A stretch of DNA of 64,000 nucleotides from Patescibacteria group bacterium (GTDB lineage: Bacteria; Patescibacteriota; Saccharimonadia; CAILAD01; BJGX01). Location of the stretch: NCBI GenBank assembly GCA_026397045.1, contig JAPLVO010000014.1, positions 724-64,723 of the forward strand, in the 5' to 3' direction. This document shows, piece after piece, positions 1,178 to 57,630 of this stretch (positions within the stretch are counted from its first letter, which is position 1; the number at the start of each line of letters is the position of its first letter). The notes beneath the pieces were generated by a model. The model made no database searches and was not told the origin of the DNA. It saw only the letters and a program-made list of their open reading frames with translations. Position numbers and translations under genes: made by a program.

Positions 1178-2223
1178 CTTGTTTTACCTCTAGCAATCAC
1201 CATTTGCCTATTAAACTCATCAATCGACTCCGTTCCTTTCAATACAACATCCAAATATATTGCAAAATACCCGACTTCTCTTTTTTTACCACTTTTCGGT
1301 ATACCGGGGTCTGCATTAATTACGCCAATTCCGCTAATACCAGGGCTAGTAAGATTTTTTAGAAAGCTGTTTACAGATTCTGCTCGCCCGTCGTCTTTAG
1401 TAGGCTCATTACTCAGATAATTAGAAGAGAAAAATATAGAACCATTTGCCTCGTCGTTAAGGGTTAACCTCAAATCATTTTTAAGATTTTCTTGTAGCTT
1501 TTGAGGCGTAATTGTACCATTTTTAAGCTGGCCAATAGCTTCTTCAGCTCTTTGCTTAGCATAGTTTCTGTCCTCCTCTAGTGTTTTGGGGTCTCCATAA
1601 TTAGGGATGGTTTCGCCATCTACTTTGTTAACAATGGTATTACCGAACCAGAAATAAAAAATATAGCCCTCGTAGTAACCACTGCCCAATGCTAGTTTTT
1701 TCTTCGAATCAATAATACTACTTATGTATGAAGCAATTGAGTTCTGGGCTGGGGTTTGGCCTAATAAGAACTTGGCCCCTTCAATATCATTGTCATTTGG
1801 CCCAAACCCCGTGACATATCCTGCCAAATATTCCGCCTGGGTTGACTGTACGAGCTTATTTTTTTCCTCTACGCTTAATGAACTTACTCCTGGGAAATTA
1901 TTAAATGAGCTTAGAGCTTTATCAAAGGTCTGCTTGTCATCCAGGCTCTTGTTTTGTTGGCTTGGTTCTTGCTGCTTGCCGCCCAAACCAAGCTTGGAGA
2001 TGATGTCGTTGCCGAAGTTAGTTTTAGAGAGTAAAAATAATGATAATACCACCAACCCCACTATAAGTGCGGCAATAGCAGCCAATTTAAGCCCCTTCTT
2101 GGGGCTAGAGCCGCCAGCAGGAGCCCCACTGCTAGCCTGGTGACTGTGGGGCTGAGCTTGGGGTGGATGCTTTAGGCCAGGATGGCTAGCCAAATGCTTA
2201 TCGACATTGGGTTTTGGGTTCAT
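1174..2223 (-). CDS. Hypothetical membrane-anchored protein (His/Pro/Gly-rich N-terminus, single TM, extracytoplasmic domain)
   Basis: 349-aa ORF; TM helix LKLAAIAALIVGLVVLSLFLL after a basic stretch; no family recognised; co-oriented and overlapping by start/stop with the downstream secreted protein gene. Confidence 0.55.
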   Translation of the reverse strand: MNPKPNVDKHLASHPGLKHPPQAQPHSHQASSGAPAGGSSPKKGLKLAAIAALIVGLVVLSLFLLSKTNFGNDIISKLGLGGKQQEPSQQNKSLDDKQTFDKALSSFNNFPGVSSLSVEEKNKLVQSTQAEYLAGYVTGFGPNDNDIEGAKFLLGQTPAQNSIASYISSIIDSKKKLALGSGYYEGYIFYFWFGNTIVNKVDGETIPNYGDPKTLEEDRNYAKQRAEEAIGQLKNGTITPQKLQENLKNDLRLTLNDEANGSIFFSSNYLSNEPTKDDGRAESVNSFLKNLTSPGISGIGVINADPGIPKSGKKREVGYFAIYLDVVLKGTESIDEFNRQMVIARGKTR

Positions 2224-2278
2224 GATTTACTCATAACAATTTTCATTATACCCCATACGCTTGGAAAATAAATAATTA

Positions 2279-2308
2279 TTGGCTGCTAACCTGTGAAAAT
2301 GGTATAAT
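2279..2308 (+). promoter_or_regulatory. Putative sigma-70 promoter for ychF (TTGGCT-18 nt-TGgTATAAT, extended -10)
   Basis: TTGGCT at 2279-2284, TGGTATAAT at 2300-2308, about 25 nt upstream of the ychF ATG at 2334. Confidence 0.4.
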
Positions 2309-2333
2309 TAAACCTTATGGAAAAGCACAAACT

Positions 2334-3407
2334 ATGTCGCTGAGTATCGGTATTGTCGGCTTGCCCAATGTCGGCAAATCAACCCTATTTAATGCCCTCA
2401 CCAAAAATCGCGTGCTGGCGGCCAACTACCCATTTGCCACTATTGAACCGAATGTTGGTGTTGTTAATGTACCCGACGAGAGGATAAATAGACTTTCAGA
2501 AATTTCCGGGAGCGCCAAAACCATCCCCGCTAGCTGCACATTTGTGGATATCGCTGGAATTGTTAAAGGAGCTAGCGAAGGTGCAGGGCTGGGCAATAAA
2601 TTTTTGAGCCATATCCGCGATAATAATGTCATAGTGCAGGTTGTGCGAGCATTTGAAAACGATGATATCGTGCATGTCGAGGGGCACATCGACCCTAAGC
2701 GAGATATAGATATTATCCGTACTGAACTATGCCTGGCGGATATAAACAGTACCCAGAACAAAATTGCCAGACTAGAAAAAGAAGTTAAGACTGAGCCTAA
2801 GCTAATCGCTAATCTGAATGAACTCAAAAAAGTTGAGCAATTGCTCGATAATAGCGAGCTTATTTCGGAACACGATGAAATTGATATGGAGCTTATAAAG
2901 GACTTGCAGCTATTAACAGCCAAGAAATTTATCTATGTGTTTAATATAGATGAGAATGATTTGGGTAATGATGAAGTTAAAGTGAACCTTGCCAAGCTCG
3001 TTGCACCAAGCCCGAGTGTGTTTTTGAGTGCCGAAACCGAATCCCAGCTAATGGACCTAGAGCCTGCGGAGGCTCATGAGCTGCTCGAGAGCATGGGCCA
3101 AAAGGAATCTGGGCTCAATGCGCTGATACATTTAGGATATGAGACTCTAGGATTTATTAGTTACTTTACTAGCGGAGAGCAAGAAAGCCGAGCCTGGACT
3201 ATCCGTAAAGGCACCCTAGCTCCGCAGGCGGCTGGCGTAATTCATGGGGATTTTGAAAAGGGCTTTATAAAAGCCGAGATAGTCAGCTACCAAGACTTTG
3301 TGGCCGGAAATGGCTGGATCGGTGCTGGCGAATTGGGTAAGACTCGAATAGAGGGTAAGGACTATCAATTCCAAAATGGCGATGTAGCGGTATTTAGACA
3401 TAGCTAG
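2334..3407 (+). CDS. ychF: Ribosome-binding ATPase YchF (Obg-family GTPase)
   Basis: N-terminal P-loop IGIVGLPNVGKSTLFNALT, G-domain plus C-terminal TGS-like region; 357 aa, the typical YchF length. Confidence 0.9.
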   Translation: MSLSIGIVGLPNVGKSTLFNALTKNRVLAANYPFATIEPNVGVVNVPDERINRLSEISGSAKTIPASCTFVDIAGIVKGASEGAGLGNKFLSHIRDNNVIVQVVRAFENDDIVHVEGHIDPKRDIDIIRTELCLADINSTQNKIARLEKEVKTEPKLIANLNELKKVEQLLDNSELISEHDEIDMELIKDLQLLTAKKFIYVFNIDENDLGNDEVKVNLAKLVAPSPSVFLSAETESQLMDLEPAEAHELLESMGQKESGLNALIHLGYETLGFISYFTSGEQESRAWTIRKGTLAPQAAGVIHGDFEKGFIKAEIVSYQDFVAGNGWIGAGELGKTRIEGKDYQFQNGDVAVFRHS

Positions 3408-3464
3408 ATCTAAATAAAAAGACCCTAAGCAAATATTGATTACTACTAAGGGCTGTTTATTTTA

Positions 3465-4025
3465 TTACTTGGCGCGCTCTATATAGCTGGCGCTACGAGT
3501 GTCGACCTTGATGATGTCGCCTTTTTTTATAAACTGAGGGGCTTGAATTTTTAGGCCGGTTTCTAGCTCTACTTCTTTAGTGCTGGCAGAAGAGCTATTG
3601 CCTTTGTCGGCACCTGGCGCACTAACTACCTTCAAGGTGACATTTTTGAGCCAATCGAAACCTATTATTTTGTCGTCATACACTAAAGCGTCAATAGTAC
3701 CGCCCTCGACGATATATTTTGGAACATTATCATCGAGCTTATTATCAACCTCAATGGTTTCATAGCTTTCTTGATCCATGACGCTGTAATTGGTGCCAGA
3801 ACTATATAAATATTGCATGGTTTTACGATCTATCTCGGCTGAGGCGACCTTTTCATCATTACGAAAAGTCTTATCGATTACCTGGCCGGTGATCAAATTC
3901 TTTAGCTTGGTGTTTACTATACTACCGCCGCGACCCATCTGCTTCTGGGCATACTCTAGAACTTTGTAAGGTGACCCTTCAAATTCTATAAGCGTGTCCT
4001 TGCGAAGGTCAGTTGGGCTTAGCAT
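3465..4025 (-). CDS. efp: Elongation factor P
   Basis: 186 aa; [44 protein letters not shown]... matches EF-P KOW/OB architecture and length. Confidence 0.9.
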   Translation of the reverse strand: MLSPTDLRKDTLIEFEGSPYKVLEYAQKQMGRGGSIVNTKLKNLITGQVIDKTFRNDEKVASAEIDRKTMQYLYSSGTNYSVMDQESYETIEVDNKLDDNVPKYIVEGGTIDALVYDDKIIGFDWLKNVTLKVVSAPGADKGNSSSASTKEVELETGLKIQAPQFIKKGDIIKVDTRSASYIERAK

Positions 4026-4243
4026 TATTTAACCACAAATGGTAATAGTGCTAAGTGCCTGGCACGCTTTAAGGCAACTGCCAGCATGCGTTGGTGCTTC
4101 ATGCTTGCGCCTGTTTTTTTACGGCCGTCAATTTTGCCTACGCCATTAAGATAGCGCTGGAGCATTTTGACATCCTTGTAATCGATGAAGTTTATCTCTT
4201 CTGCGTATAGTTTATTCTGTTTAGCTTTATAAAAATCTGCCAT
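4025..4243 (-). CDS. rpsR: 30S ribosomal protein S18
   Basis: 72 aa, ...[51 protein letters not shown]; classic S18; part of the rpsF-ssb-rpsR arrangement. Confidence 0.92.
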
Positions 4244-4258
4244 TATTGTTTCCTTTAA

Positions 4259-4744
4259 TTAGAACGGTATGTCGTCTAGGTTAATTTCGCCGTCGCCAAG
4301 GTCGTCTACGGGAGGTGTGTCATCTTTTTTGGCTTTCTTAGTGTCGGCGTTTGAGCCTGCTTCCTGCGGCATATCGGCTGGGATGTCTGGGGCATAATCC
4401 CCGCCCTCAGACTGGCCACCGATGAAGTTAATATCGTTGGCTACTATTTCAGTGCGTTGTCTTTTGGATCCATCTTCTGCATCCCAGTTTCGGGTTTGTA
4501 ATCTACCGGAAACTAATACCTTACGGCCCTTTTTAAGATAACTATCCACTAGCTCTGCTAGCTTGCCCCAAGCGACGATATTGTGATACTCCACTGCATC
4601 TTTCTTTTCGCCACTTTGATCCTGCCAGCTGCGGTTGGTAGCCACGCTAAATGAGGTTACATTTTGTCCACTCGGAGTAGTGCGCATTTCTGGGTCTCGG
4701 GTTAGGTTACCCATAACAATTGCTTGGTTAAAATCTTTTGCCAT
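4259..4744 (-). CDS. ssb: Single-stranded DNA-binding protein
   Basis: OB-fold N-terminus MAKDFNQAIVMGNLTRDPEMRTTPSGQNVTSFSVATNRSWQD..., acidic C-terminal tail ending DDIPF. Confidence 0.92.
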   Translation of the reverse strand: MAKDFNQAIVMGNLTRDPEMRTTPSGQNVTSFSVATNRSWQDQSGEKKDAVEYHNIVAWGKLAELVDSYLKKGRKVLVSGRLQTRNWDAEDGSKRQRTEIVANDINFIGGQSEGGDYAPDIPADMPQEAGSNADTKKAKKDDTPPVDDLGDGEINLDDIPF

Positions 4745-4746
4745 GA

Positions 4747-5154
4747 TTATTTATCCTCGCCTTTTAATACTTTGGTCTCTTTAGCTGGCTTGGCCTCTTT
4801 GCTAGCGACCGGCGCAGCTTTGGGTGCAGCTTTAGGCTTAGCAGTTTCGTTGGGTTTTGTTATGTATCGGATATTTTCTGTAGAAACGATAAGATAACGC
4901 ATGACCTCTTCTGTGATGCGAAGCGCTTGGTTAATATCAGATACTTTGGCAGGGTCTACTTCGATGTTATAAAAAACATAGATGCCCCAATCCTGCTTAT
5001 TGACTTTATATGCCAGCTTGCGCTTGCCCCAGTTATCCTTTTTGACAATCTTGGCATTGCTCTTAGAGATAATTTTTTCTATCTTATCAAGAGCATTGGC
5101 AATGTCTATTTCGAGATCAGGATGTAAAACTACGGATACTTCGTAATTTCTAAT
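4747..5154 (-). CDS. rpsF: 30S ribosomal protein S6 (apparent non-canonical ATT start; Lys/Ala-rich C-terminal tail)
   Basis: Minus-strand translation read by eye: (I)RNYEVSVVLHPDLEID...WGKRKLAYKVNKQDWGIYVFYNIEV..., typical S6. An in-frame TAA lies 9 codons upstream and no ATG/GTG/TTG lies in between; SD AAAGAGAGGAG sits 7 nt before ATT at 5154-5152. Not in the ORF track because it lacks a canonical start. Confidence 0.7.
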   Translation of the reverse strand: MRNYEVSVVLHPDLEIDIANALDKIEKIISKSNAKIVKKDNWGKRKLAYKVNKQDWGIYVFYNIEVDPAKVSDINQALRITEEVMRYLIVSTENIRYITKPNETAKPKAAPKAAPVASKEAKPAKETKVLKGEDK

Positions 5155-5957: not shown

Positions 5958-6581
5958 TTAGTCCTCAAAAAAAACTGAGGCCTGTATAGCTTGCTTTATT
6001 AAGCCATAGGGATAACCTTTACGAGCCAGATATTCAATCAACTTTTGCTTGTTCTGGTATTTGGGCTGCCGGGCCTTGCTCTCGACCAATTGAGACAAAC
6101 ACTCGAGCTGCTTGGCATCTGATACCTTTGCCACGGCCGCTGCAATTGTATCCTTGTCTACTCCTTTGCTAGCGAGCTCCATCCGTAACACCGAAACAGG
6201 CTTAGGGCTAAGGAGCATTCTATTGCGAACCCACATATCAGCGAATTCTATATCATCGAGATACCCCTGCTGGGTAAGCTTGTCGCATGCTGACTTTGCA
6301 TCTTGAGCGTCGTAGCCCTTTCGGGTAGTGAGATAGGCTATAACCTCTGTGGTGCTACGGGGCCTGATGGCCAGAAATCTAATGGCGCAATTATAGCATT
6401 TGGAGCCGCTATGAGCTCGATGTAAATCAGCTAGTGTTGAATCATCGATGGACTGATTTGGAAGCAGCGAGAACAGAGATAGATCAGCTTCGGAAAGAGC
6501 CAGGGCGTACTTACCATCGATGAATATATTATAGTAGCCCTGCCGTTTTGCCTGAGGCTTGACATCAGTGATCAGTGGCAT
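5958..6581 (-). CDS. recX: Regulatory protein RecX
   Basis: 207 aa, helical-repeat protein immediately downstream of recA; N-terminus MPLITDVKPQAKRQGYYNIFIDGKYALALSE is typical RecX. Confidence 0.85.
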   Translation of the reverse strand: MPLITDVKPQAKRQGYYNIFIDGKYALALSEADLSLFSLLPNQSIDDSTLADLHRAHSGSKCYNCAIRFLAIRPRSTTEVIAYLTTRKGYDAQDAKSACDKLTQQGYLDDIEFADMWVRNRMLLSPKPVSVLRMELASKGVDKDTIAAAVAKVSDAKQLECLSQLVESKARQPKYQNKQKLIEYLARKGYPYGLIKQAIQASVFFED

Positions 6582-44141: not shown

Positions 44142-44759
44142 ATGGACATCGTAACAACCCCGACCCGTAATTCGCTCATAGCCAGGTCGATAGCTAATGT
44201 AATTTTCGGATCCCTAATACTGCTATTCCCCGGGATAACGCTAGCAGTGCTAGCGGTGGCATTTGCTATTAATATACTCATTGTTGGGCTCTTCATGCTC
44301 TTCGAACCAGCTTTTGACTCAACCAATAAGCATGCCCTACTAACTGTTATATCAGGCCTACTAGCGATTGGGGCGGGAGTTTATGTGCTATCAAGGCCGC
44401 TAGCCGGAGTTGTTATCTTGAGTATTATAATTGCTGCTTGGGCGCTACTATATGGGCTCATGGATCTATTTATAGGTTTCAAACTTTCTGAAAATAAGCT
44501 TCAGGGGTCCTGGATATATATTCTCATTGGTATATTATCTCTGATGTTTGCTGTATACCTAGCATTTAACCCTCTTGAAGGTAGCTTGGCGCTAGTGGGC
44601 GTTGTAGGTATATACTCACTTTTAATTGGATTTATTTTTGGCTTCCAGGCCTTCAAGATAAAGCCAGAGAAGGCAATAAAAGCTAAGACAACTACTCCTA
44701 AAACATCCGGACCCATCAAAAAACCAGCCAAGAAAATCGTCAGGAAAACCTCCAAATAA
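44142..44759 (+). CDS. HdeD/DUF308-family membrane protein (paralog 1)
   Basis: Repeated short TM hairpins; IANVIFGSLILLFPGITLAVLAVAFAINILIVGLFMLFEP; paralog of 45520-46068. Confidence 0.7.
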   Translation: MDIVTTPTRNSLIARSIANVIFGSLILLFPGITLAVLAVAFAINILIVGLFMLFEPAFDSTNKHALLTVISGLLAIGAGVYVLSRPLAGVVILSIIIAAWALLYGLMDLFIGFKLSENKLQGSWIYILIGILSLMFAVYLAFNPLEGSLALVGVVGIYSLLIGFIFGFQAFKIKPEKAIKAKTTTPKTSGPIKKPAKKIVRKTSK

Positions 44760-45448
44760 TGGAAACCAAGGTTGTAAAGCCTCAATCAGAACACATAGAT
44801 ACATTTAGCAACTATTTATCAGGGATATTTGCCTGGATGTTTGCAGGCTTATCGATAAGTGGGGCTATAGGCTATATAATCTCCCAAAGTGGCGACTCAA
44901 TCAAATTGCTATTTTTAAACCCGATATCGTTTCTGATAATAATTGTATTACAGCTAGGATTAGTAGTTTTCTTGAGTGCTAGGGCTACCAAATTGAGTGC
45001 CAACACAGCTAGGCTAGCTTTTTTAGGCTATGCACTAACCGTAGGCATAACTCTTTCTACGATATTTTTGACCTACACCTCGACTTCCATAATGAGAGTA
45101 TTCTTCATAGCTGGGAGTATGTTTCTAGTTATGGCAATAATTGGCTACACTACCAAGGTAGATCTAAGTAAAATTGGTACGATCCTGCTGATGGGCCTAT
45201 TTGGCATTATAATCGCGACAGTAGTGAATTTTTTTCTAAATTCAAATGCCCTCCAGATGGCGGTTTCTTACATTGGCGTAGTAATATTTCTAGGGCTTAC
45301 AGCCTACGATATACAAAAAATTAAGTCTATCTATAGCCAATTCGGTAGCGCTGGCAATATGGCTATTCTTGGTGCTCTAAGCCTCTACCTCGATTTCTTA
45401 AATCTTTTCTTGTTCTTGCTCAGGATTTTTGGAGCAGGTAAAGACTAG
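44759..45448 (+). CDS. Bax-inhibitor-1/YccA (TMBIM) family membrane protein
   Basis: Seven-TM protein of about 230 aa with the typical C-terminal ...GALSLYLDFLNLFLFLLRIFG. Confidence 0.8.
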   Translation: METKVVKPQSEHIDTFSNYLSGIFAWMFAGLSISGAIGYIISQSGDSIKLLFLNPISFLIIIVLQLGLVVFLSARATKLSANTARLAFLGYALTVGITLSTIFLTYTSTSIMRVFFIAGSMFLVMAIIGYTTKVDLSKIGTILLMGLFGIIIATVVNFFLNSNALQMAVSYIGVVIFLGLTAYDIQKIKSIYSQFGSAGNMAILGALSLYLDFLNLFLFLLRIFGAGKD

Positions 45449-45519
45449 CGATAATTTGCCTTGCTAACGGTTATTGGGGTATTATAATTATATTATAATA
45501 ATCTAATTTAGGAGGTCCC

Positions 45520-46068
45520 ATGGATGTAATTGTTATGCCGTCAAAAAAGAGTTTACTGCTAAGATCCATTGTAAATATAATTGTAGGATTAATAATTGTT
45601 GCCTGGCCAGCAGCGACACTTGTCGTGCTAGTTTATGCTTTCGCTATCAATATACTAATTATTGGTATTGCAACACTATTTGAGCCTGTATTTAATAAAT
45701 CTAGCCACAGCAACATTGGTGCCGTTATACTAGGAGTAATAGGAATCGCTGCAGGTATATACCTGATTGCAAGACCAGTCGTCACGGGCGAAATAATTGC
45801 GCTTCTGATTGCTTTCTGGGCTATCTTGTTCGGCATTACAGACCTCTATATTGGCTTTACCAGTAAGACAAAAGAAGGTGGGAGTCTTCTATTCATACTC
45901 GCCGGTGTTATATCCTTGATATTTGGAATATATGTACTAAACAGCCCGCTCGAAACAATCCTGTCTCTAATTTTTGTTATCGGATTATACAGCATTATCG
46001 TAGGTGCTGTACTCGGCTGTGTAGGCCTGTTCTTTTACCCAGCAGCAAAAAAATCTTCCAAAGCTTAG
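45520..46068 (+). CDS. HdeD/DUF308-family membrane protein (paralog 2)
   Basis: IVNIIVGLIIVAWPAATLVVLVYAFAINILIIGIATLFEP, clearly paralogous to 44142-44759. Confidence 0.7.
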   Translation: MDVIVMPSKKSLLLRSIVNIIVGLIIVAWPAATLVVLVYAFAINILIIGIATLFEPVFNKSSHSNIGAVILGVIGIAAGIYLIARPVVTGEIIALLIAFWAILFGITDLYIGFTSKTKEGGSLLFILAGVISLIFGIYVLNSPLETILSLIFVIGLYSIIVGAVLGCVGLFFYPAAKKSSKA

Positions 46069-47070
46069 ATGGAAATCACCCCCGTGCCTGTCAAATCGCA
46101 TAAGTTCTGGAACAAATTAATACTAATTCTCCTTGCTGTGCTACTTGTCCTAGCTAGCTATATGACAATACTCCGAGACAACTTTGCCTCTGGAGCCAAG
46201 ACATACTTGTTTTTAAAAGAGGCAAGGGCTTATGAAAACATTGCCGATCTAGCTAAGATAGAAATCAGATCCAATCTTCCTGAGAATATCAAAAACAACT
46301 TCGTAAAGCGTGCTGTGGTAGAAAAGATAATGGAGATAGTAATAACTCCTGAAAATGTCTCAAAAGTCGCGGAGCCAGGTTTGATTGCCCTTTACAAACT
46401 TTCCGATAAAGCCGCATCGTTAGCTGGCGAAAAGATCGTAATAGACACTGCTGAGTTCAAGAAGCAAGCCAATGAATACCTACCGGCACTTGGCCTGCCA
46501 GCAGGTTTTACTGAAGCTACTAATGACTTCGTTAAAGCTGTGCCGAATCAAATAACCATCATTGATGTAGATAAAAACCCCAACTCCCCTATTGCGGCAT
46601 TTGTTAAGATCCGTGAAGCCTATAAAGGTCTAAACACCGCTACAAATGTACTGTGGGTACTAATAATTACAGCTCTGGCTGCGCTGGTGGCTATAAATAT
46701 TCGCGCAGGGCGAAAAATACTCTCCACAATCACTTGGTCCTTCGGTGTGGCTGGTGGCCTGATGCTTGCTATGTCCTACGCCATAACCCCAATCGTCGTG
46801 TCGATTATTCCACAGAATCCTAGCCCTGCCATTAATAGCGCCACAACCAACTTAGTGGCTGATGCTCTAGACTACTTCCTGATGGTATCGAGAAGCTATG
46901 GATGGACAATGATAGTAATCGCATTATTAGCTCTTGGTGGCAAGCTACTACTATCAAACGATAGTGTTAAGACAGCCCTAAAGGGTGGCTACCAGAAAAT
47001 AGTATCGACTGCTAAAGGAACTAAGCCAAAAACCAAATCAGAGCCGAAGCGTACACCAAAGAGCAAGTAG
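46069..47070 (+). CDS. Hypothetical membrane protein (N-terminal TM, soluble middle domain, C-terminal TM bundle, Lys-rich tail)
   Basis: 333-aa ORF whose start abuts the preceding gene's stop (operonic). Confidence 0.5.
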   Translation: MEITPVPVKSHKFWNKLILILLAVLLVLASYMTILRDNFASGAKTYLFLKEARAYENIADLAKIEIRSNLPENIKNNFVKRAVVEKIMEIVITPENVSKVAEPGLIALYKLSDKAASLAGEKIVIDTAEFKKQANEYLPALGLPAGFTEATNDFVKAVPNQITIIDVDKNPNSPIAAFVKIREAYKGLNTATNVLWVLIITALAALVAINIRAGRKILSTITWSFGVAGGLMLAMSYAITPIVVSIIPQNPSPAINSATTNLVADALDYFLMVSRSYGWTMIVIALLALGGKLLLSNDSVKTALKGGYQKIVSTAKGTKPKTKSEPKRTPKSK

Positions 47071-47380: not shown

Positions 47381-47893
47381 CTAGAAACCTAGATTGCTAA
47401 ACTCTGGGACATACAGAGTTACATCATCTAAAAATGGCCTAATAGAGTTGGCAAATATAGGATTTGCATCTGTAGTAAATGTAGAACCATCATTGTATCT
47501 AACACTAATGGTAAATTGTTTACCTCCAAGCGGGGGCTCAGACGAAGGCTTTTGGGATATGATCTTATCGACCACGCCATAGGCTATGAGGCTCTTTTGG
47601 ATTTCACTAAATTTACCTGGCTGAATCTGGCAGTCTGTATACTTAGTATCAGTATCTATCTGTTTTTTAACCGATAGTTGGCAGCTGTCCTTACTTATTG
47701 TCAAAGTGCTGGTCTGCTGGTATTGGGGAGAAACCGGCCCAGAGCTGACACTAAAAGATATTTCAGCAATCTTATGAGAGTACTTACTTTGGATAATCAT
47801 CATTGCCACTGCCAATATAATTACCGAGCCGATTATGACTGATAATATAAACAATGTATTAATATATGGCTTTTTAGCACCTTTACTTAACAT
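47381..47893 (-). CDS. Hypothetical N-terminally anchored extracytoplasmic protein
   Basis: 170 aa; TM LFILSVIIGSVIILAVAMMII followed by a Ser/Thr-rich soluble domain. Confidence 0.5.
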   Translation of the reverse strand: MLSKGAKKPYINTLFILSVIIGSVIILAVAMMIIQSKYSHKIAEISFSVSSGPVSPQYQQTSTLTISKDSCQLSVKKQIDTDTKYTDCQIQPGKFSEIQKSLIAYGVVDKIISQKPSSEPPLGGKQFTISVRYNDGSTFTTDANPIFANSIRPFLDDVTLYVPEFSNLGF

Positions 47894-47969
47894 ATAGCTA
47901 CATCATATCACCTTTATAGTACTGTAAAAATATATTATATGTTAAAATTAATACATTAAGGAGTATGAA

Positions 47970-48347
47970 ATGAAGAGAGTAAGCTTTATACAAATAGGCC
48001 TTTCATTGGTCTTTCTAGTAATTGCCTTGGTTGTACTAGGCGACCTTGTGGGTCTCATAAAGGCCAATAATATATTTGGCCAATACTGGCCGGCTTTATT
48101 AATTCTATTAGGGGTTATGCTGATAGGCCCGAATTCCAGAAATAATGGTATTTCGTTTGGCATAATAATACTAGGTATTTTGCTACTAATGAATACATTC
48201 AACCTCTTCGCTACCCAGGGCGGAAAAGTAGTTCTGATAATGCTCTTATCATTTAGTGGGCTAGCCATGCTAGTTTTCGCTACCACTAAAAAGCACAAAG
48301 GCTCTAACCCTAGTAGTACTTCAACCGACAAAGAGCTTTATTTTTAG
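47970..48347 (+). CDS. Small 4-TM membrane protein
   Basis: 125-aa ORF with SD AAGGAG; its stop overlaps the stop of the convergent GyrI-like gene. Confidence 0.5.
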   Translation: MKRVSFIQIGLSLVFLVIALVVLGDLVGLIKANNIFGQYWPALLILLGVMLIGPNSRNNGISFGIIILGILLLMNTFNLFATQGGKVVLIMLLSFSGLAMLVFATTKKHKGSNPSSTSTDKELYF

Positions 48348-52306: not shown

Positions 52307-52696
52307 ATGGATAAAAAAGAACTTAAAAAAAAGCTGAGCCCGATGGCGTTTAGAGTTACGCAGGAACACGGCACCGAACCTGCCTTTACGGGCGTATATG
52401 TCGACAACCACGCCGAAGGCACATATCGCTGCGTGGTATGTGGGCAAAAACTTTTTGAAAGCGATACTAAATTCGACAGCGGAACTGGCTGGCCTAGCTT
52501 CGATAAGGCCATACCAGGATCTACGGTAATGAACTCAGACGACAGGTATGGAATGAATCGCATTGAAGTTAGCTGCAGTAAATGCGGTGCTCACCTGGGG
52601 CATATGTTCGATGACGGTCCAAGCAAAACAACTGGGGAAAGATTCTGTATTAATTCCTGTGCACTAGATCTAAAAAAGAAAGAAGGCAAACAATGA
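52307..52696 (+). CDS. msrB: Peptide methionine sulfoxide reductase MsrB (Zn-type, two CxxC)
   Basis: CVVCGQKLF...CSKCGAHLGHMFDDGP...RFCINSCAL; SD AGGAG upstream. Confidence 0.92.
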   Translation: MDKKELKKKLSPMAFRVTQEHGTEPAFTGVYVDNHAEGTYRCVVCGQKLFESDTKFDSGTGWPSFDKAIPGSTVMNSDDRYGMNRIEVSCSKCGAHLGHMFDDGPSKTTGERFCINSCALDLKKKEGKQ

Positions 52697-53346
52697 CGAG
52701 TAACCTAAAGGCTGTATTCCTTAATTGCACACTAAAAAAATCACCTAAAAAATCAAATACAGATGCATTAATTCAAAAGGCTGTGGATGTATATGAAGAA
52801 ATTAAAGTCGATAGCACTGTGATCCGTGTGGTTGACCACAATGTAGCTACTGGGGTTAGCTCAGATGAAGGACATGGTGACGAGTGGCCACAAATTTACA
52901 AAAAAGTCTTAGAAGCCGATATTATAATAATTGCTACTCCGATATGGTTTGGGGTGCGCGGTTCAGTCTGCCAGCAGGTAATGGAGCGGCTAAGTGGCGG
53001 CTACGACGAAGCAGACCCAAAAACAGGGCAATTCCCACTCTACGGCAAAGTTGGTGCATGCATTGTGACTGGTAATGAAGATGGTGCACATGATGTTTGT
53101 GCTAACACGCTATTTAATCTGACCCACATAGGATGCACTATTGCTCCTAACTCCGATAGCTATTGGGTTGGCGAGGCAGGCCCAGGGCCAAGTTACATCG
53201 AGGTCGGCCAAAAAAGCCTTTATACCAATAGAACAATCAGATTCTTAGCCCACAACACTGCCTGGATGGCCCAAATGCTCAAAAATAATCCGATACCAAC
53301 AAATCTCAAAGAACTCGAAGAGAAAGCAAAAAAAGTCAGCACCTAA
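52693..53346 (+). CDS. Flavodoxin-like NAD(P)H-dependent FMN reductase family protein
   Basis: 217 aa; flavodoxin-fold pattern (…IIIIATPIWFG…); 4-nt overlap with msrB, so co-transcribed. Confidence 0.6.
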   Translation: MTSNLKAVFLNCTLKKSPKKSNTDALIQKAVDVYEEIKVDSTVIRVVDHNVATGVSSDEGHGDEWPQIYKKVLEADIIIIATPIWFGVRGSVCQQVMERLSGGYDEADPKTGQFPLYGKVGACIVTGNEDGAHDVCANTLFNLTHIGCTIAPNSDSYWVGEAGPGPSYIEVGQKSLYTNRTIRFLAHNTAWMAQMLKNNPIPTNLKELEEKAKKVST

Positions 53347-53732
53347 TGCTTGATAAATTTCTTACGCACCCACTATTGGCGCTAAATTTTGCTATCGAGC
53401 TAACCCTCGGCCTAACTATGGTTATCTATCCTCAGCTCATTACAAGCCTGGGAGGAGTTGATATTTCAGAAGTCCTACTACGGACATGCGGCATGTTAGC
53501 TCTTTCGGTATCGGCTTTCTCTCTACTATCAATTTATTTTATTATAAACACAACCGAGAAGCACAAAGTTAAAAATTTTGTATACTTAAATTTATTGATA
53601 TTTAATTTAGCCCTAACTATTGGCCTGCTTTATGCAGCGATAACAGGAGAGATATCTTATTTAGGTGCAATTGTTCACGCGCCTTTAGCATTGGCTTTCG
53701 CTGTGTCGCTATATCTTAGTTATAAGCGGTAA
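53346..53732 (+). CDS. Small 4-TM membrane protein
   Basis: 128 aa, TAATG start/stop overlap with the preceding gene. Confidence 0.5.
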   Translation: MLDKFLTHPLLALNFAIELTLGLTMVIYPQLITSLGGVDISEVLLRTCGMLALSVSAFSLLSIYFIINTTEKHKVKNFVYLNLLIFNLALTIGLLYAAITGEISYLGAIVHAPLALAFAVSLYLSYKR

Positions 53733-56393: not shown

Positions 56394-57182
56394 TTATCTG
56401 CCAAATATTCTACCGAGCTGAGAACCGGCGGCTTGCCACCACGGCGCAGTGTAGCGCAGGCGAGGCTTGTCGGCCTCTACTGCTGCAACAATCTTTTTGA
56501 CTATTGAGCTATTACTTTTTCTCTCAAACAGAGCAAATCTTGCCTCTTCATTTTTCTTGATCTTATCTATTACTTTATTAAAATAAGAAGATTTGTCCAT
56601 CCAGGCGTATTTGCTATTCATCACCCTCTGATTGAAGCCCGTGGCGTAGGTGCCAGGCTCGACTACAATAATATTGACATTTTTGGTTACTAGCTTAAGC
56701 TCTTGGCGCATAATGTCGGCAGCAGCCGAAAGCGAGAATTTGGTCATGCAATAGGCTCCCCAAAAAGCTATCGGCATACGCCCAGCTAATGAGCTAATGA
56801 TAATAACTTTGCCAGAATCTTTTTTGATCATTTTTTTGAGTACACCCTGGGTTAGTTCAAGGGTGCCAAAAACATTAGTTTCAAAGTTTTTTCTAACATT
56901 AGACATTGGTATTTCGGCCAGTGAGCCTGATTCGCCAATAGCGGCGTTGTTTATTAGTACATCGATATCAAGCGCCAGTGCTTTGTCTCTATCTTGTTTC
57001 ATGGTGATATCGAGTTTGAATATTTCAAGTCTTATGCCCTGCTGCGCGGCAAAGGTCTTAAGTTCTTCTACCGACTTTTCTCTATGTACGGTGGCATATA
57101 CCTTGTAGCCAAGCCTTGCGAGGGCCACTGCACTGTCTAAGCCTATGCCGCCGCGGCATCCGGTTATTAATACTTTTATCAT
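56394..57182 (-). CDS. Short-chain dehydrogenase/reductase (SDR)
   Basis: ITGCRGGIG nucleotide-binding motif, YCMTK catalytic motif. Confidence 0.85.
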   Translation of the reverse strand: MIKVLITGCRGGIGLDSAVALARLGYKVYATVHREKSVEELKTFAAQQGIRLEIFKLDITMKQDRDKALALDIDVLINNAAIGESGSLAEIPMSNVRKNFETNVFGTLELTQGVLKKMIKKDSGKVIIISSLAGRMPIAFWGAYCMTKFSLSAAADIMRQELKLVTKNVNIIVVEPGTYATGFNQRVMNSKYAWMDKSSYFNKVIDKIKKNEEARFALFERKSNSSIVKKIVAAVEADKPRLRYTAPWWQAAGSQLGRIFGR

Positions 57183-57261
57183 GACACTCCTTTTGCGGTT
57201 TTTTAGCTATTTACAACTTTTATTATAGACCTTTTAGTGCCCATTATCGCAACAAACATTC

Positions 57262-57315
57262 TCATAATAAAAACCCGAGGCAAGCTCGGGCATTTATTAT
57301 GGCGGAGAGAGGGAT
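57262..57315. repeat. Direct repeat copy A: terminator hairpin + partial tRNA-Ser 3'-end (about 53 nt)
   Basis: cataataaaaacccgaggcaagctcgggcatttattatggcggagagag(ga)gggat is shared with 57427-57482, with only a 2-nt GA indel. Confidence 0.8.
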
Positions 57316-57426
57316 AGCGGCTTGCGCCTTTTCCGCTTCAATCATGCTCGAAGTAAACTTCTGCGCGTGCTTTCGCTCCACCGAACCCTGCTGCAAGCAG
57401 CAGTAGGGTTCTCATTATATCTATTC

Positions 57427-57482
57427 CATAATAAAAACCCGAGGCAAGCTCGGGCATTTATTATGGCGGAGAGAGAGGGATT
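57427..57482. repeat. Direct repeat copy B (overlaps the genuine 3' end of tRNA-Ser plus its terminator)
   Basis: See copy A; this copy covers the last 19 nt of the tRNA (CCA, the acceptor 3' strand and part of the T-stem) plus the downstream hairpin CCCGAGCTTGCCTCGGG+U-run. Confidence 0.8.
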
Positions 57483-57553
57483 CGAACCCTCGAGACGGTT
57501 GCCCGCCTACACGCTTTCCAAGCGTGCTCCTTCAGCCACTCGGACACCTCTCC
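57464..57553 (-). tRNA. tRNA-Ser (anticodon GGA), class II with long variable arm, CCA encoded
   Basis: Minus strand: GGAGAGGTGTCCGAGTGGCTGAAGGAGCACGC-TTGGAAA-GCGTGTAGGCGGGCAACCGTCTCGAGGGTTCGAATCCCTCTCTCTCCGCCA; GTTCGAATCC T-loop, 7-nt anticodon loop TTGGAAA. Confidence 0.85.
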
Positions 57554-57630
57554 GTGCGGGGTATAGTTTAGCAAAAAAAGCCCGTTTTGGGAAAACCTCG
57601 TAGCACAAAGTTTGACCCCAATAATACTGC

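Follow-up and report, generated by a model that had tools for sequence, protein, structure and literature searches.

Why should the 3′ end of a tRNA gene, together with the hairpin behind it, be present twice in close succession? This question is raised by a locus in a 64,000-nt stretch of contig JAPLVO010000014.1 from a Patescibacteria group bacterium (GenBank assembly GCA_026397045.1; hereafter the window), in which the tail of the gene for tRNA-Ser(GGA) recurs a short distance downstream. The original prediction, made from the letters of the window, saw in this arrangement either the footprint of a tyrosine integrase or a second tRNA-Ser gene in decay, and associated the former with an old island in the 44–57 kb region. 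We propose, with confidence that is evenly balanced, that the locus carries an integrase-less mini-element of about 150 bp, which is bounded by attachment (att) sites and lies at an integration hot spot. The feature is of a known kind, an att-type duplication of a tRNA tail at a hot spot, in an unusual miniature and conserved form.

The tRNA gene and its duplicated 3′ end

The tRNA-Ser(GGA) gene with its duplicated 3′ end and terminator is real. It encodes the only tRNA found by ARAGORN in the window, and a repeat search returned an exact direct repeat of 49 nt (57263-57311 and 57427-57475) with a spacing of 164 nt. If one TC slip is allowed, 53 of 55 nt match. A 25-mer taken from the repeat occurs exactly twice in the 64 kb, against no occurrence expected from shuffles. 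The features of the repeat are the following.

57464..57553, minus strand: intact tRNA-Ser(GGA) with encoded CCA (ARAGORN; Rfam RF00005, 52.1 bits)
57464..57481, minus strand: copy 1, the last 18 nt of the tRNA, ATCCCTCTCTCTCCGCCA, from T-loop position 59 to CCA; att-core-like block inside the tRNA (sequence reading; repeat search)
57427..57463, minus strand: hairpin T1, 37 nt, terminator-like, 3′ of the tRNA, GCCCGAG-CUUGC-CUCGGGU followed by a U-run, with an AU-rich outer stem
57300..57315, minus strand: copy 2 of the tRNA tail, ATCCCTCTCTC--CGCCA (ATCCCTCTCTCCGCCA), one TC unit shorter than copy 1
57263..57299, minus strand: hairpin T2, identical to T1 (repeat search; terminator scan)

The repeat had been placed downstream of the tRNA, and this holds; the gene is on the minus strand, so downstream means towards lower coordinates. 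Read along this strand, the order is tRNA tail (57481..57464), T1 (57463..57427), spacer (57426..57316), copy 2 (57315..57300) and T2 (57299..57263). The shared part of the tRNA, given earlier as 19 nt, is a duplicated tail of 18 nt, and the short spacer, given as 112 bp, measures 111 nt (57316-57426). The sole difference between copy 1 and copy 2 is one TC unit of a (TC)n run, which had been correctly noticed on the plus strand as a GA indel. Both T1 and T2 are intrinsic-terminator-like on the minus strand according to the terminator scan.

Relatives of the locus were found through the PGI protein encoded next to the tRNA. They are metagenome-assembled genomes of Candidatus Saccharibacteria or Patescibacteria with 72-79% protein identity, and their loci are designated here by numbers. 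The arrangement of tRNA-Ser, hairpin, homologous module, second tail copy and hairpin is also present in L003, L002 and L042 (NCBI GCA_029781735.1); L003 is identical to L014 and L025, which come from other samples. The element occupies the same place in three diverged Saccharibacteria lineages.

A core shared with integrase-bearing elements

Integrase-type recombination is favoured as the origin of the duplication because of the boundary of the repeat, the dyad found there, the extra tail copies in relatives and the occurrence of the same core in integrase-bearing elements. The identity between the copies has a sharp edge, AT|CCC at T-loop position 59, which is the same in the window, L003 and L042. 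The 18-mer tail is present in at least 120 viral contigs of IMG/VR, where 87 open reading frames (ORFs) of 280-480 aa lie within 400 nt of it. Among the clustering ORFs tested, 5 of 5 belong to the Pfam family Phage_integrase (PF00589), and a sixth ORF tested, in contig L054, encodes a DUF4062 protein. About 40 distinct IMG/VR copies are partial; in these the identity with the tRNA breaks off in the T-loop, 0-6 nt to the left of ATCCC. Viral contigs also commonly have the CCCAC form of the tail seen in L042.

CGG[AG]G occurs within 14 nt upstream in 18 of 50 partial copies, compared with 2 of 50 in the control interval. The layout CGGAGAGA-ATCCCTC-TCTCTCCG, inverted repeats around 7 bp, was seen in at least 8 contigs, and an integrase ORF lies within ~100 nt in all 14 of the checked contigs of the CGGAGA class. 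Core sites of lambda-type and other tyrosine recombinases consist of inverted core-type sites around ~7 bp. The layout is a candidate core site for a family of integrases targeting tRNA-Ser(GGA). The element in the window carries the same CGGAG...CUCCG dyad, interrupted by a 13-nt GGC-NNNN-GCC hairpin. The suggestion of an att footprint therefore stands with respect to the T-loop edge, the 18-mer, the dyad, the extra copies and the hypervariable flanks described below, but no integrase accompanies it.

Two observations were made on the viral contigs themselves. The layout stands beside a divergent or co-directional integrase gene in L065, L080, L082, L089, L121, L131, L132 and others, and it corresponds to the acceptor stem of tRNA-Ser with 7 nt closing it. 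In L054 (IMGVR_UViG_3300042934_001332, 2915-3163) two tRNA-Ser tail copies lie 186 nt apart; the first comprises the variable arm and T-arm without a 5′ half, and the second is preceded ~150 nt upstream by GGAGAGGTG, a tRNA 5′ end. An unrelated element thus shows a tail duplication of the same short-range kind, and the adjacent 383-aa ORF is that of the DUF4062 protein, not an integrase. The window and L054 share ATGAGAACCCT with no further similarity, and this match was treated as a coincidence.

tRNA-Ser(GGA) as an integration hot spot

For the Saccharibacteria of this clade, the gene is a hot spot of integration. L002 has a third partial copy of the tail (4473-4495), which matches the end of the element rather than that of the tRNA, and L002 and L003 diverge directly after the second copy. 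L042 has a third copy of 11 nt (5974-5984). In L171, ~940 nt with a C39 peptidase gene separate the tRNA from a remnant composed of TCCGCCA, the hairpin and half of the element. The tRNA is present, the element absent and other DNA found behind the tRNA in L040, L004 and L006, which are other species (PGI 76-79% identical); this patchy presence supports the proposed mini-element.

In the more distant relative L034, a tail copy with 17 of 20 matching positions lies 2964 nt downstream of tRNA-Ser(GGA). The segment of ~3 kb (2010-5072) extends from the tRNA to the degenerate copy GAATC--GCCTTCTCCGCAA (5055-5072) and encodes a Ham1-like protein, a homologue of SDR and a phage-type regulator with KilA-N (phrog_2657, E = 7e-48). 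It has no integrase and resembles an islet of the type of a cis-mobilizable element (CIME).

Nine contigs from different assemblies (L001, L038, L041, L043, L044 and L172-L175) end in tRNA-Ser(GGA), directly at it or shortly before it. This points to heterogeneity between strains or to assembly-breaking repeats, and a hot spot also explains why assemblies of these genomes break at this gene. The 5′ side of the tRNA is variable too, as can be concluded from two further observations. The PGI protein of metagenome contig L038 is 100% identical to that of the window, the contig and the window diverge right after aactttgtgcta, ~45 nt upstream of the tRNA (57598-57630 in the window, 3560-3619 in L038), and then the contig ends; and L002, L004, L006, L040 and L042 have 1-3 extra genes without a Pfam or PHROG match between PGI and the tRNA.

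The second copy tracks the tRNA in L042, where both read CCCAC, and does not do so in L002, whose tRNA has C66 while T is retained in the copies. The (TC)n run is one TC unit short in copy 2 of the window (57300-57315) and in the third copy of L042 (5974-5984); tail copies that are not part of a tRNA appear to undergo microsatellite-type slippage.

The proposed mini-element and its precedents

We propose that the two tail copies would represent attL-like and attR-like junctions of a tyrosine-integrase-type insertion into the tRNA gene, with the crossover taking place around the T-loop and the 3′ strand of the T-stem. What remains between them would be a gene-less mini-element of ~150 bp, consisting of the hairpin that terminates the rebuilt tRNA and of the conserved 111-nt non-coding module. 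The end of the module beside copy 2 would carry the left half of the att-core-type dyad CGGAG...CUCCG. The whole would be a very small integrase-less att-bounded remnant, similar to a CIME. The repeat, its boundary and conservation, the occurrence of the same core in integrase-bearing elements and the lack of an integrase at this locus are observations, from which we infer a recombination origin of the tail duplication and a module that was formerly an att arm or a regulatory leader.

Both integrase-less att-bounded remnants and tandem arrays of tRNA or tmRNA tail repeats, with a conserved motif just upstream of each repeat, are known from the literature (PMC5704250, PMC3146451). CIMEs are decayed remnants of integrative and conjugative elements or integrative and mobilizable elements which keep attL and attR without integration or transfer genes (PMC5704250, reviewing Pavlovic et al. 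2004). The segment in the window is likewise bounded by a tRNA 3′ end and a direct repeat, has no integrase and lies at a site of accretion, where relatives have extra repeats. Both att sites are kept and genes for integration and transfer are lost, though the 13-nt hairpin sits in the dyad of the second site. Known CIMEs are kilobases long and contain genes, whereas the element here, compared at the level of sequence alone, is ~150 bp, non-coding and conserved across species.

A second precedent is provided by the Dehalococcoides ssrA gene, the 3′ end of which is followed by tandem direct repeats with an insertion point in the T-loop and a conserved non-target motif abutting each repeat; many of the ssrA-bounded segments have no integration module (PMC3146451). 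Several tail repeats after one small-RNA gene, the start in the T-loop, the upstream motif and the integrase-less segments are shared with the element described here. The Dehalococcoides islands depend on the serine recombinase DsiB, which is present in many copies, are kilobases long and contain rdhA genes (PMC3146451); in contrast, no recombinase of any kind was found at the locus in the window and the bounded segment is tiny. The third comparison is with lambda-type att cores and integration sites in the T-loop (sublocations of Williams 2002, as cited in PMC3146451). Here too identity extends from the T-loop to CCA and both arms of the dyad are kept. The 13-nt GGC-NNNN-GCC hairpin, however, parts the left arm from the spacer and would displace the core-binding site, and no arm-type repeats were identified in the element.

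If the locus is only a scar, it is an ordinary one, yet it marks tRNA-Ser(GGA) as a hot spot in ultra-small host-dependent bacteria with poorly known mobile elements.

A conserved and structured module between the copies

The spacer between the tail copies is itself a conserved, structured element, which the original prediction missed. Its parts are as follows.

57316..57413, minus strand: body of the conserved element, with homologues in L003/L014/L025, L002 and L042 and a truncated one in L171
57414..57423, minus strand: possible −10 box, TAGATATAAT, just 5′ of the element (sequence reading; not called by the promoter scan)
57383-57411, minus strand: P1 hairpin
57376-57382, minus strand: GGUGGAG
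57365-57372 with 57340-57347, minus strand: long-range helix P2′
57350-57361, minus strand: P3 hairpin
57332-57335, minus strand: CGGA
57319-57328, minus strand: GGC-GCAA-GCC hairpin

A search of all fetched loci with nhmmer and the covariance model R1 returned the known instances and the truncated copy in L171 (6663-6701), and nothing else. The differences between the lineages cluster in the hairpins, where pairing is preserved. The tip of P1 reads CUGCUG/CAGCA in the window and AGCAGC/GCUGCU in L042, and it is missing in L003. P3 reads GAAG-UUUA-CUUC in the window and GAAA-CUUG-UUUC in L042; L003 has an AU hairpin of 33 nt in its place. In the long-range helix P2′ four pairs are changed on both sides. 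Given the hand alignment, RNAalifold recovers P1, P2′/P3 and a 3′ stem of CGGAG with CUCCG unaided.

This 3′ stem gives the end of the element a likeness to the tRNA. CGGAG(A) of the module pairs with (U)CUCCG of the second tail copy, which recreates the tRNA-Ser acceptor pairs G1:C72, G2:C71, A3:U70, G4:C69 and A5:U68, adds C(-1):G73 and leaves CCA free. All five acceptor pairs are recreated in L003 and L042 and four in the window, which has a mismatch at the fifth. The acceptor-like 5′ strand stands just 25 nt away from its 3′ counterpart; D, anticodon and T arms are all missing, and the GGC-NNNN-GCC hairpin sits inside the loop of the stem. The last 37 nt of the element, GGAGA...UCUCCGCCA, form this 3′ domain and look like a tRNA-Ser cut down to the acceptor stem and a variable-arm-like hairpin.

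A small open reading frame does not account for the module. The peptides that begin with ATG-AGA-ACC in the window and in L042 are unrelated to each other, an ATG is missing from L003, and the lengths of the indels are not divisible by three.

Evidence against a simple scar

Several results weigh against the proposed mini-element. The first is the conservation of the module: over aligned columns the module of the window is 82% identical to that of L042 and 87% identical to that of L003, and those of L042 and L003 are 76% identical to each other, while identity at 4-fold sites of the adjacent PGI gene between element-bearing lineages is 0.31-0.45, that is, saturated. In hand alignment A4, 94% of the cells are paired, with 10 two-sided pair changes, a result reached by 0 of 500 shuffles; these counts come from three independent sequences and an alignment fitted by hand, and so lean towards structure. 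Slid controls of the same alignment are 31-46% paired. The two-sided, helix-keeping changes and the conservation fit a selected RNA better than a dead remnant.

T1, which would be expected to derive from the same element, is, unlike the module, not conserved between lineages. T1 and T2 are identical in the window, whereas in L003 they are diverged homologues of each other (p = 0.0005). The repeat also reaches 37 nt beyond the tRNA into the terminator, which is not required of an att core.

Nor did a parent element with the module come to light in the collections searched: IMG/VR gave 0 true matches to the element-specific sequence, and INPHARED phages and PLSDB plasmids gave none either. In the metagenome scan, element-specific patterns had true matches only in L014 and L025, both identical to L003, and the other 15 matches were due to chance. 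Neither loci L001-L045 nor the 395 pieces of the window's six-frame translation gave a match at E<=1 to an integrase profile built from 58 tRNA-Ser-linked integrases, which detects six integrases left out of the build, and Pfam and NCBIfam revealed no integrase or transposase among the ORFs tested in the 44-62 kb region. Finally, an empty site from the same species was not seen among the relatives, L038 ending before the tRNA.

The conservation of the module with its helices, the terminator within the repeat and the lack of conservation of T1 do not fit a simple dead scar. Capture of the tRNA together with its terminator as attP would explain why the terminator lies inside the repeat. Conservation of the module would follow if selection acted on it or if related elements had visited recently. 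It is unusual that a gene-less, att-type-bounded segment of ~150 bp is recognisable, with its helices kept, across species in which silent sites are saturated, and this conservation implies either selection on a non-coding module, possibly a mimic of the tRNA tail, or recent visits by related mobile elements.

A possible small RNA linked to tRNA-Ser

The points just raised lead to the strongest of the other explanations, that the 111-nt module and copy 2 form a working small RNA gene of ~115 nt linked to tRNA-Ser. We consider this a serious, though minor, possibility. Such an RNA may arise when transcription reads through from the tRNA, or it may have a promoter of its own, and T2 would end it. 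Either an att-type origin or one by duplication would be compatible with it. Its acceptor-stem mimic, as modelled, could compete for the enzymes acting on tRNA ends (RNase P, the enzymes for CCA addition and 3′ trimming, SerRS), and its CU-rich tail could pair with Shine-Dalgarno-like sequences.

Both the identity of 82% between the window and L042 against saturated PGI sites and the pairing statistics argue for this small RNA, as does the recovery of the stems by RNAalifold from the same alignment. The P1 and P3 hairpins change in length while the bases of the hairpins are kept, and the single sequences fold with z = -3.35, -3.42 and -2.09. A terminator-like hairpin follows the module in the window and in L003. 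In the window, and only there, a perfect TATAAT lies 2 nt 5′ of the GAACCC that opens P1.

Each of these points has its counterweight. The covariation comes from just three independent sequences aligned by hand, and a covariation-like signal can arise in the DNA itself from template-switch mutation in inverted repeats. Folding is just as good for the opposite strand (z = -3.99, -2.96, -3.27), and the G-U to A-C asymmetry is balanced at 3:3, so that neither strand, and neither RNA nor DNA pairing, is favoured. A convincing promoter is lacking in L003 and L042. The 10-mer TAGATATAAT equals the −10 region of the tRNA-Ser promoter in L042 and has no counterpart in L003, and the promoter scan of the window called nothing at the element. 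About half of the relatives (L040, L004, L006, L171) have lost the element or keep it in truncated form. Searches of the locus, the whole window, L042 and L003 against Rfam 15, with E-value and gathering thresholds, returned the tRNA only, plus sub-threshold matches overlapping it, and hence no family for the module.

A more specific version, which we regard as improbable, is an undescribed Saccharibacteria small RNA that travels with, or was born from, the att site in tRNA-Ser. Its 3′ domain would be an acceptor-stem minihelix with a free CCA that is processed, bound or charged like a tRNA, or serves as a decoy for integrases or tRNA-end enzymes, the identity of the tail being kept for this function. 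Minihelices are substrates of RNase P and aminoacyl-tRNA synthetases. Like them and like tRNA-like domains of small RNAs, the 3′ domain of the element can form the pairs G1:C72 to A5:U68 with G73 and CCA. It differs from them in that C(-1) would pair with G73, the T-arm is missing and the fifth pair is mismatched in the window; the domain is described here from its nucleotides only.

A possible tandem duplication of the tRNA gene

The decayed second tRNA-Ser of the original prediction would require that the whole tRNA gene and its terminator were duplicated in tandem by unequal crossing-over or replication slippage, and that the downstream copy lost its D, anticodon and 5′ T-arm parts and drifted. 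This origin is doubtful. It accounts for a repeated block that includes the terminator, identical in the window and homologous in L003 (p = 0.0005), and the 164-nt period suits a unit of leader, tRNA and terminator. Moreover, the last 37 nt of the element can be read as (A/G)C-GGAGA (tRNA −2 to +5), AGGCG..GCC (variable-arm-like) and the 18-nt tail, so that acceptor-stem-like and variable-arm-like hairpins are kept there.

The rest of the spacer shows no sign of a hidden or decayed tRNA, and this candidate was rejected. ARAGORN, a check that had been suggested, found none there when run on the whole window, and the Rfam tRNA model has no match to the spacer, with the cut-off at E<=10 for the window and at E<=1 for L042 and L003. 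The weak similarity to tRNA-Ser that had been reported for the spacer is not above chance: local alignment with the first 72 nt of the tRNA, alone or extended by 40 nt of upstream sequence, gave p = 0.27-0.46 against 1000 shuffles in the three lineages. Conversely, the covariance model of the element scores the real tRNA-Ser at 12.6 bits (E = 0.32). A drifting pseudogene would keep neither 76-87% identity where silent sites are saturated nor an exact left boundary in all three lineages, and a different mechanism would have to be found for the extra partial copies in L002, L042 and L034.

No support for a large island

It is very improbable that the second copy marks the left edge, or an internal edge, of a large and old island of accessory genes in the 44-57 kb region with an eroded far end. 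In comparison with L040, where the tRNA is followed by DUF3522 and M3 peptidase genes, the window does have the element and the SDR gene inserted, and the SDR homologue of L034 lies inside the 3-kb segment bounded by the tRNA and a degenerate tail copy. At most the element and SDR, ~1.2 kb, are variable relative to L040, however. The two copies bracket just the 111 nt and a hairpin, with the genes of the 44-57 kb region outside. A third copy of the tail was looked for in the 64-kb window with <=3 mismatches allowed, and none was found. The GC content is 43.6% for the window and 0.37-0.47 throughout it, with no step or anomaly. As for synteny, the proposed comparison with relatives lacking the element confirmed that the element and SDR are variable, but the SDR–M3 peptidase–HAD order is shared with relatives, and in L040 DUF3522 and M3 directly follow the tRNA. 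Given the absence of an integrase and of a third copy, the even GC content and this synteny, the 13-kb island is not supported.

The families found among the ORFs tested at 44-62 kb are DUF308, Bax1-I, GyrI-like, MsrA, SDR, M3 peptidase, HAD and similar. A Bax1-I family protein is flanked there by two DUF308 membrane proteins (44142-46068), and the ORFs 46069-47070, 47381-48331 and 52693-53732 have no family match.

A chance repeat or an assembly artefact is practically excluded by the 49-nt exact repeat with its expectation of 0 and by the same architecture in the independent assemblies L003, L014, L025, L002 and L042.

The SDR gene and its surroundings

On the minus strand the locus is flanked by groES/groEL and a bifunctional PGI/PMI gene before the tRNA and by genes for an SDR oxidoreductase, a DUF3522 protein, an M3 oligoendopeptidase and a HAD hydrolase after it. 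The features of the SDR region, and a tandem array in other loci, are the following.

56394..57182, minus strand: SDR-family oxidoreductase, the first gene after copy 2
57183..57262, minus strand: upstream region of SDR with its own TATAAT (57222-57227) and the ATGTTTGTT block, both kept in L003; outside the repeat (sequence reading)
L031 1444-1740, L032 1205-1501, L033 28-252: 56-nt tandem array

The element was considered as a 5′ leader or riboswitch of SDR, a role that was rejected on three grounds. A conserved promoter belonging to SDR itself lies after T2, L002 and L042 have the element but not SDR with it, and L008, L027, L031 and L034 have SDR but not the element with it. The gene follows the element in the window and L003, is absent in L040 and lies elsewhere in other relatives. 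Its protein is 86% identical between the window and L003, compared with 76% for PGI across the tRNA, and close SDR homologues are found among at least 5 different sets of neighbouring genes. Together these observations hint at movement of the SDR gene itself from genome to genome.

Two further ORFs were noted. A 93-aa ORF with a TTG start (57322-57603, plus strand) runs antisense through the element, T1 and the tRNA and is almost certainly spurious, and a 67-aa ORF upstream of SDR was called by the gene caller on the contig carrying P0001. Upstream of the SDR homologue in another lineage, a 56-nt unit (ACAAACTAAAGCTTGAACTACGG...GTAGACCACGCTTCAG) is repeated in ~3.9 tandem copies, and the copy number of this array varies between contigs.

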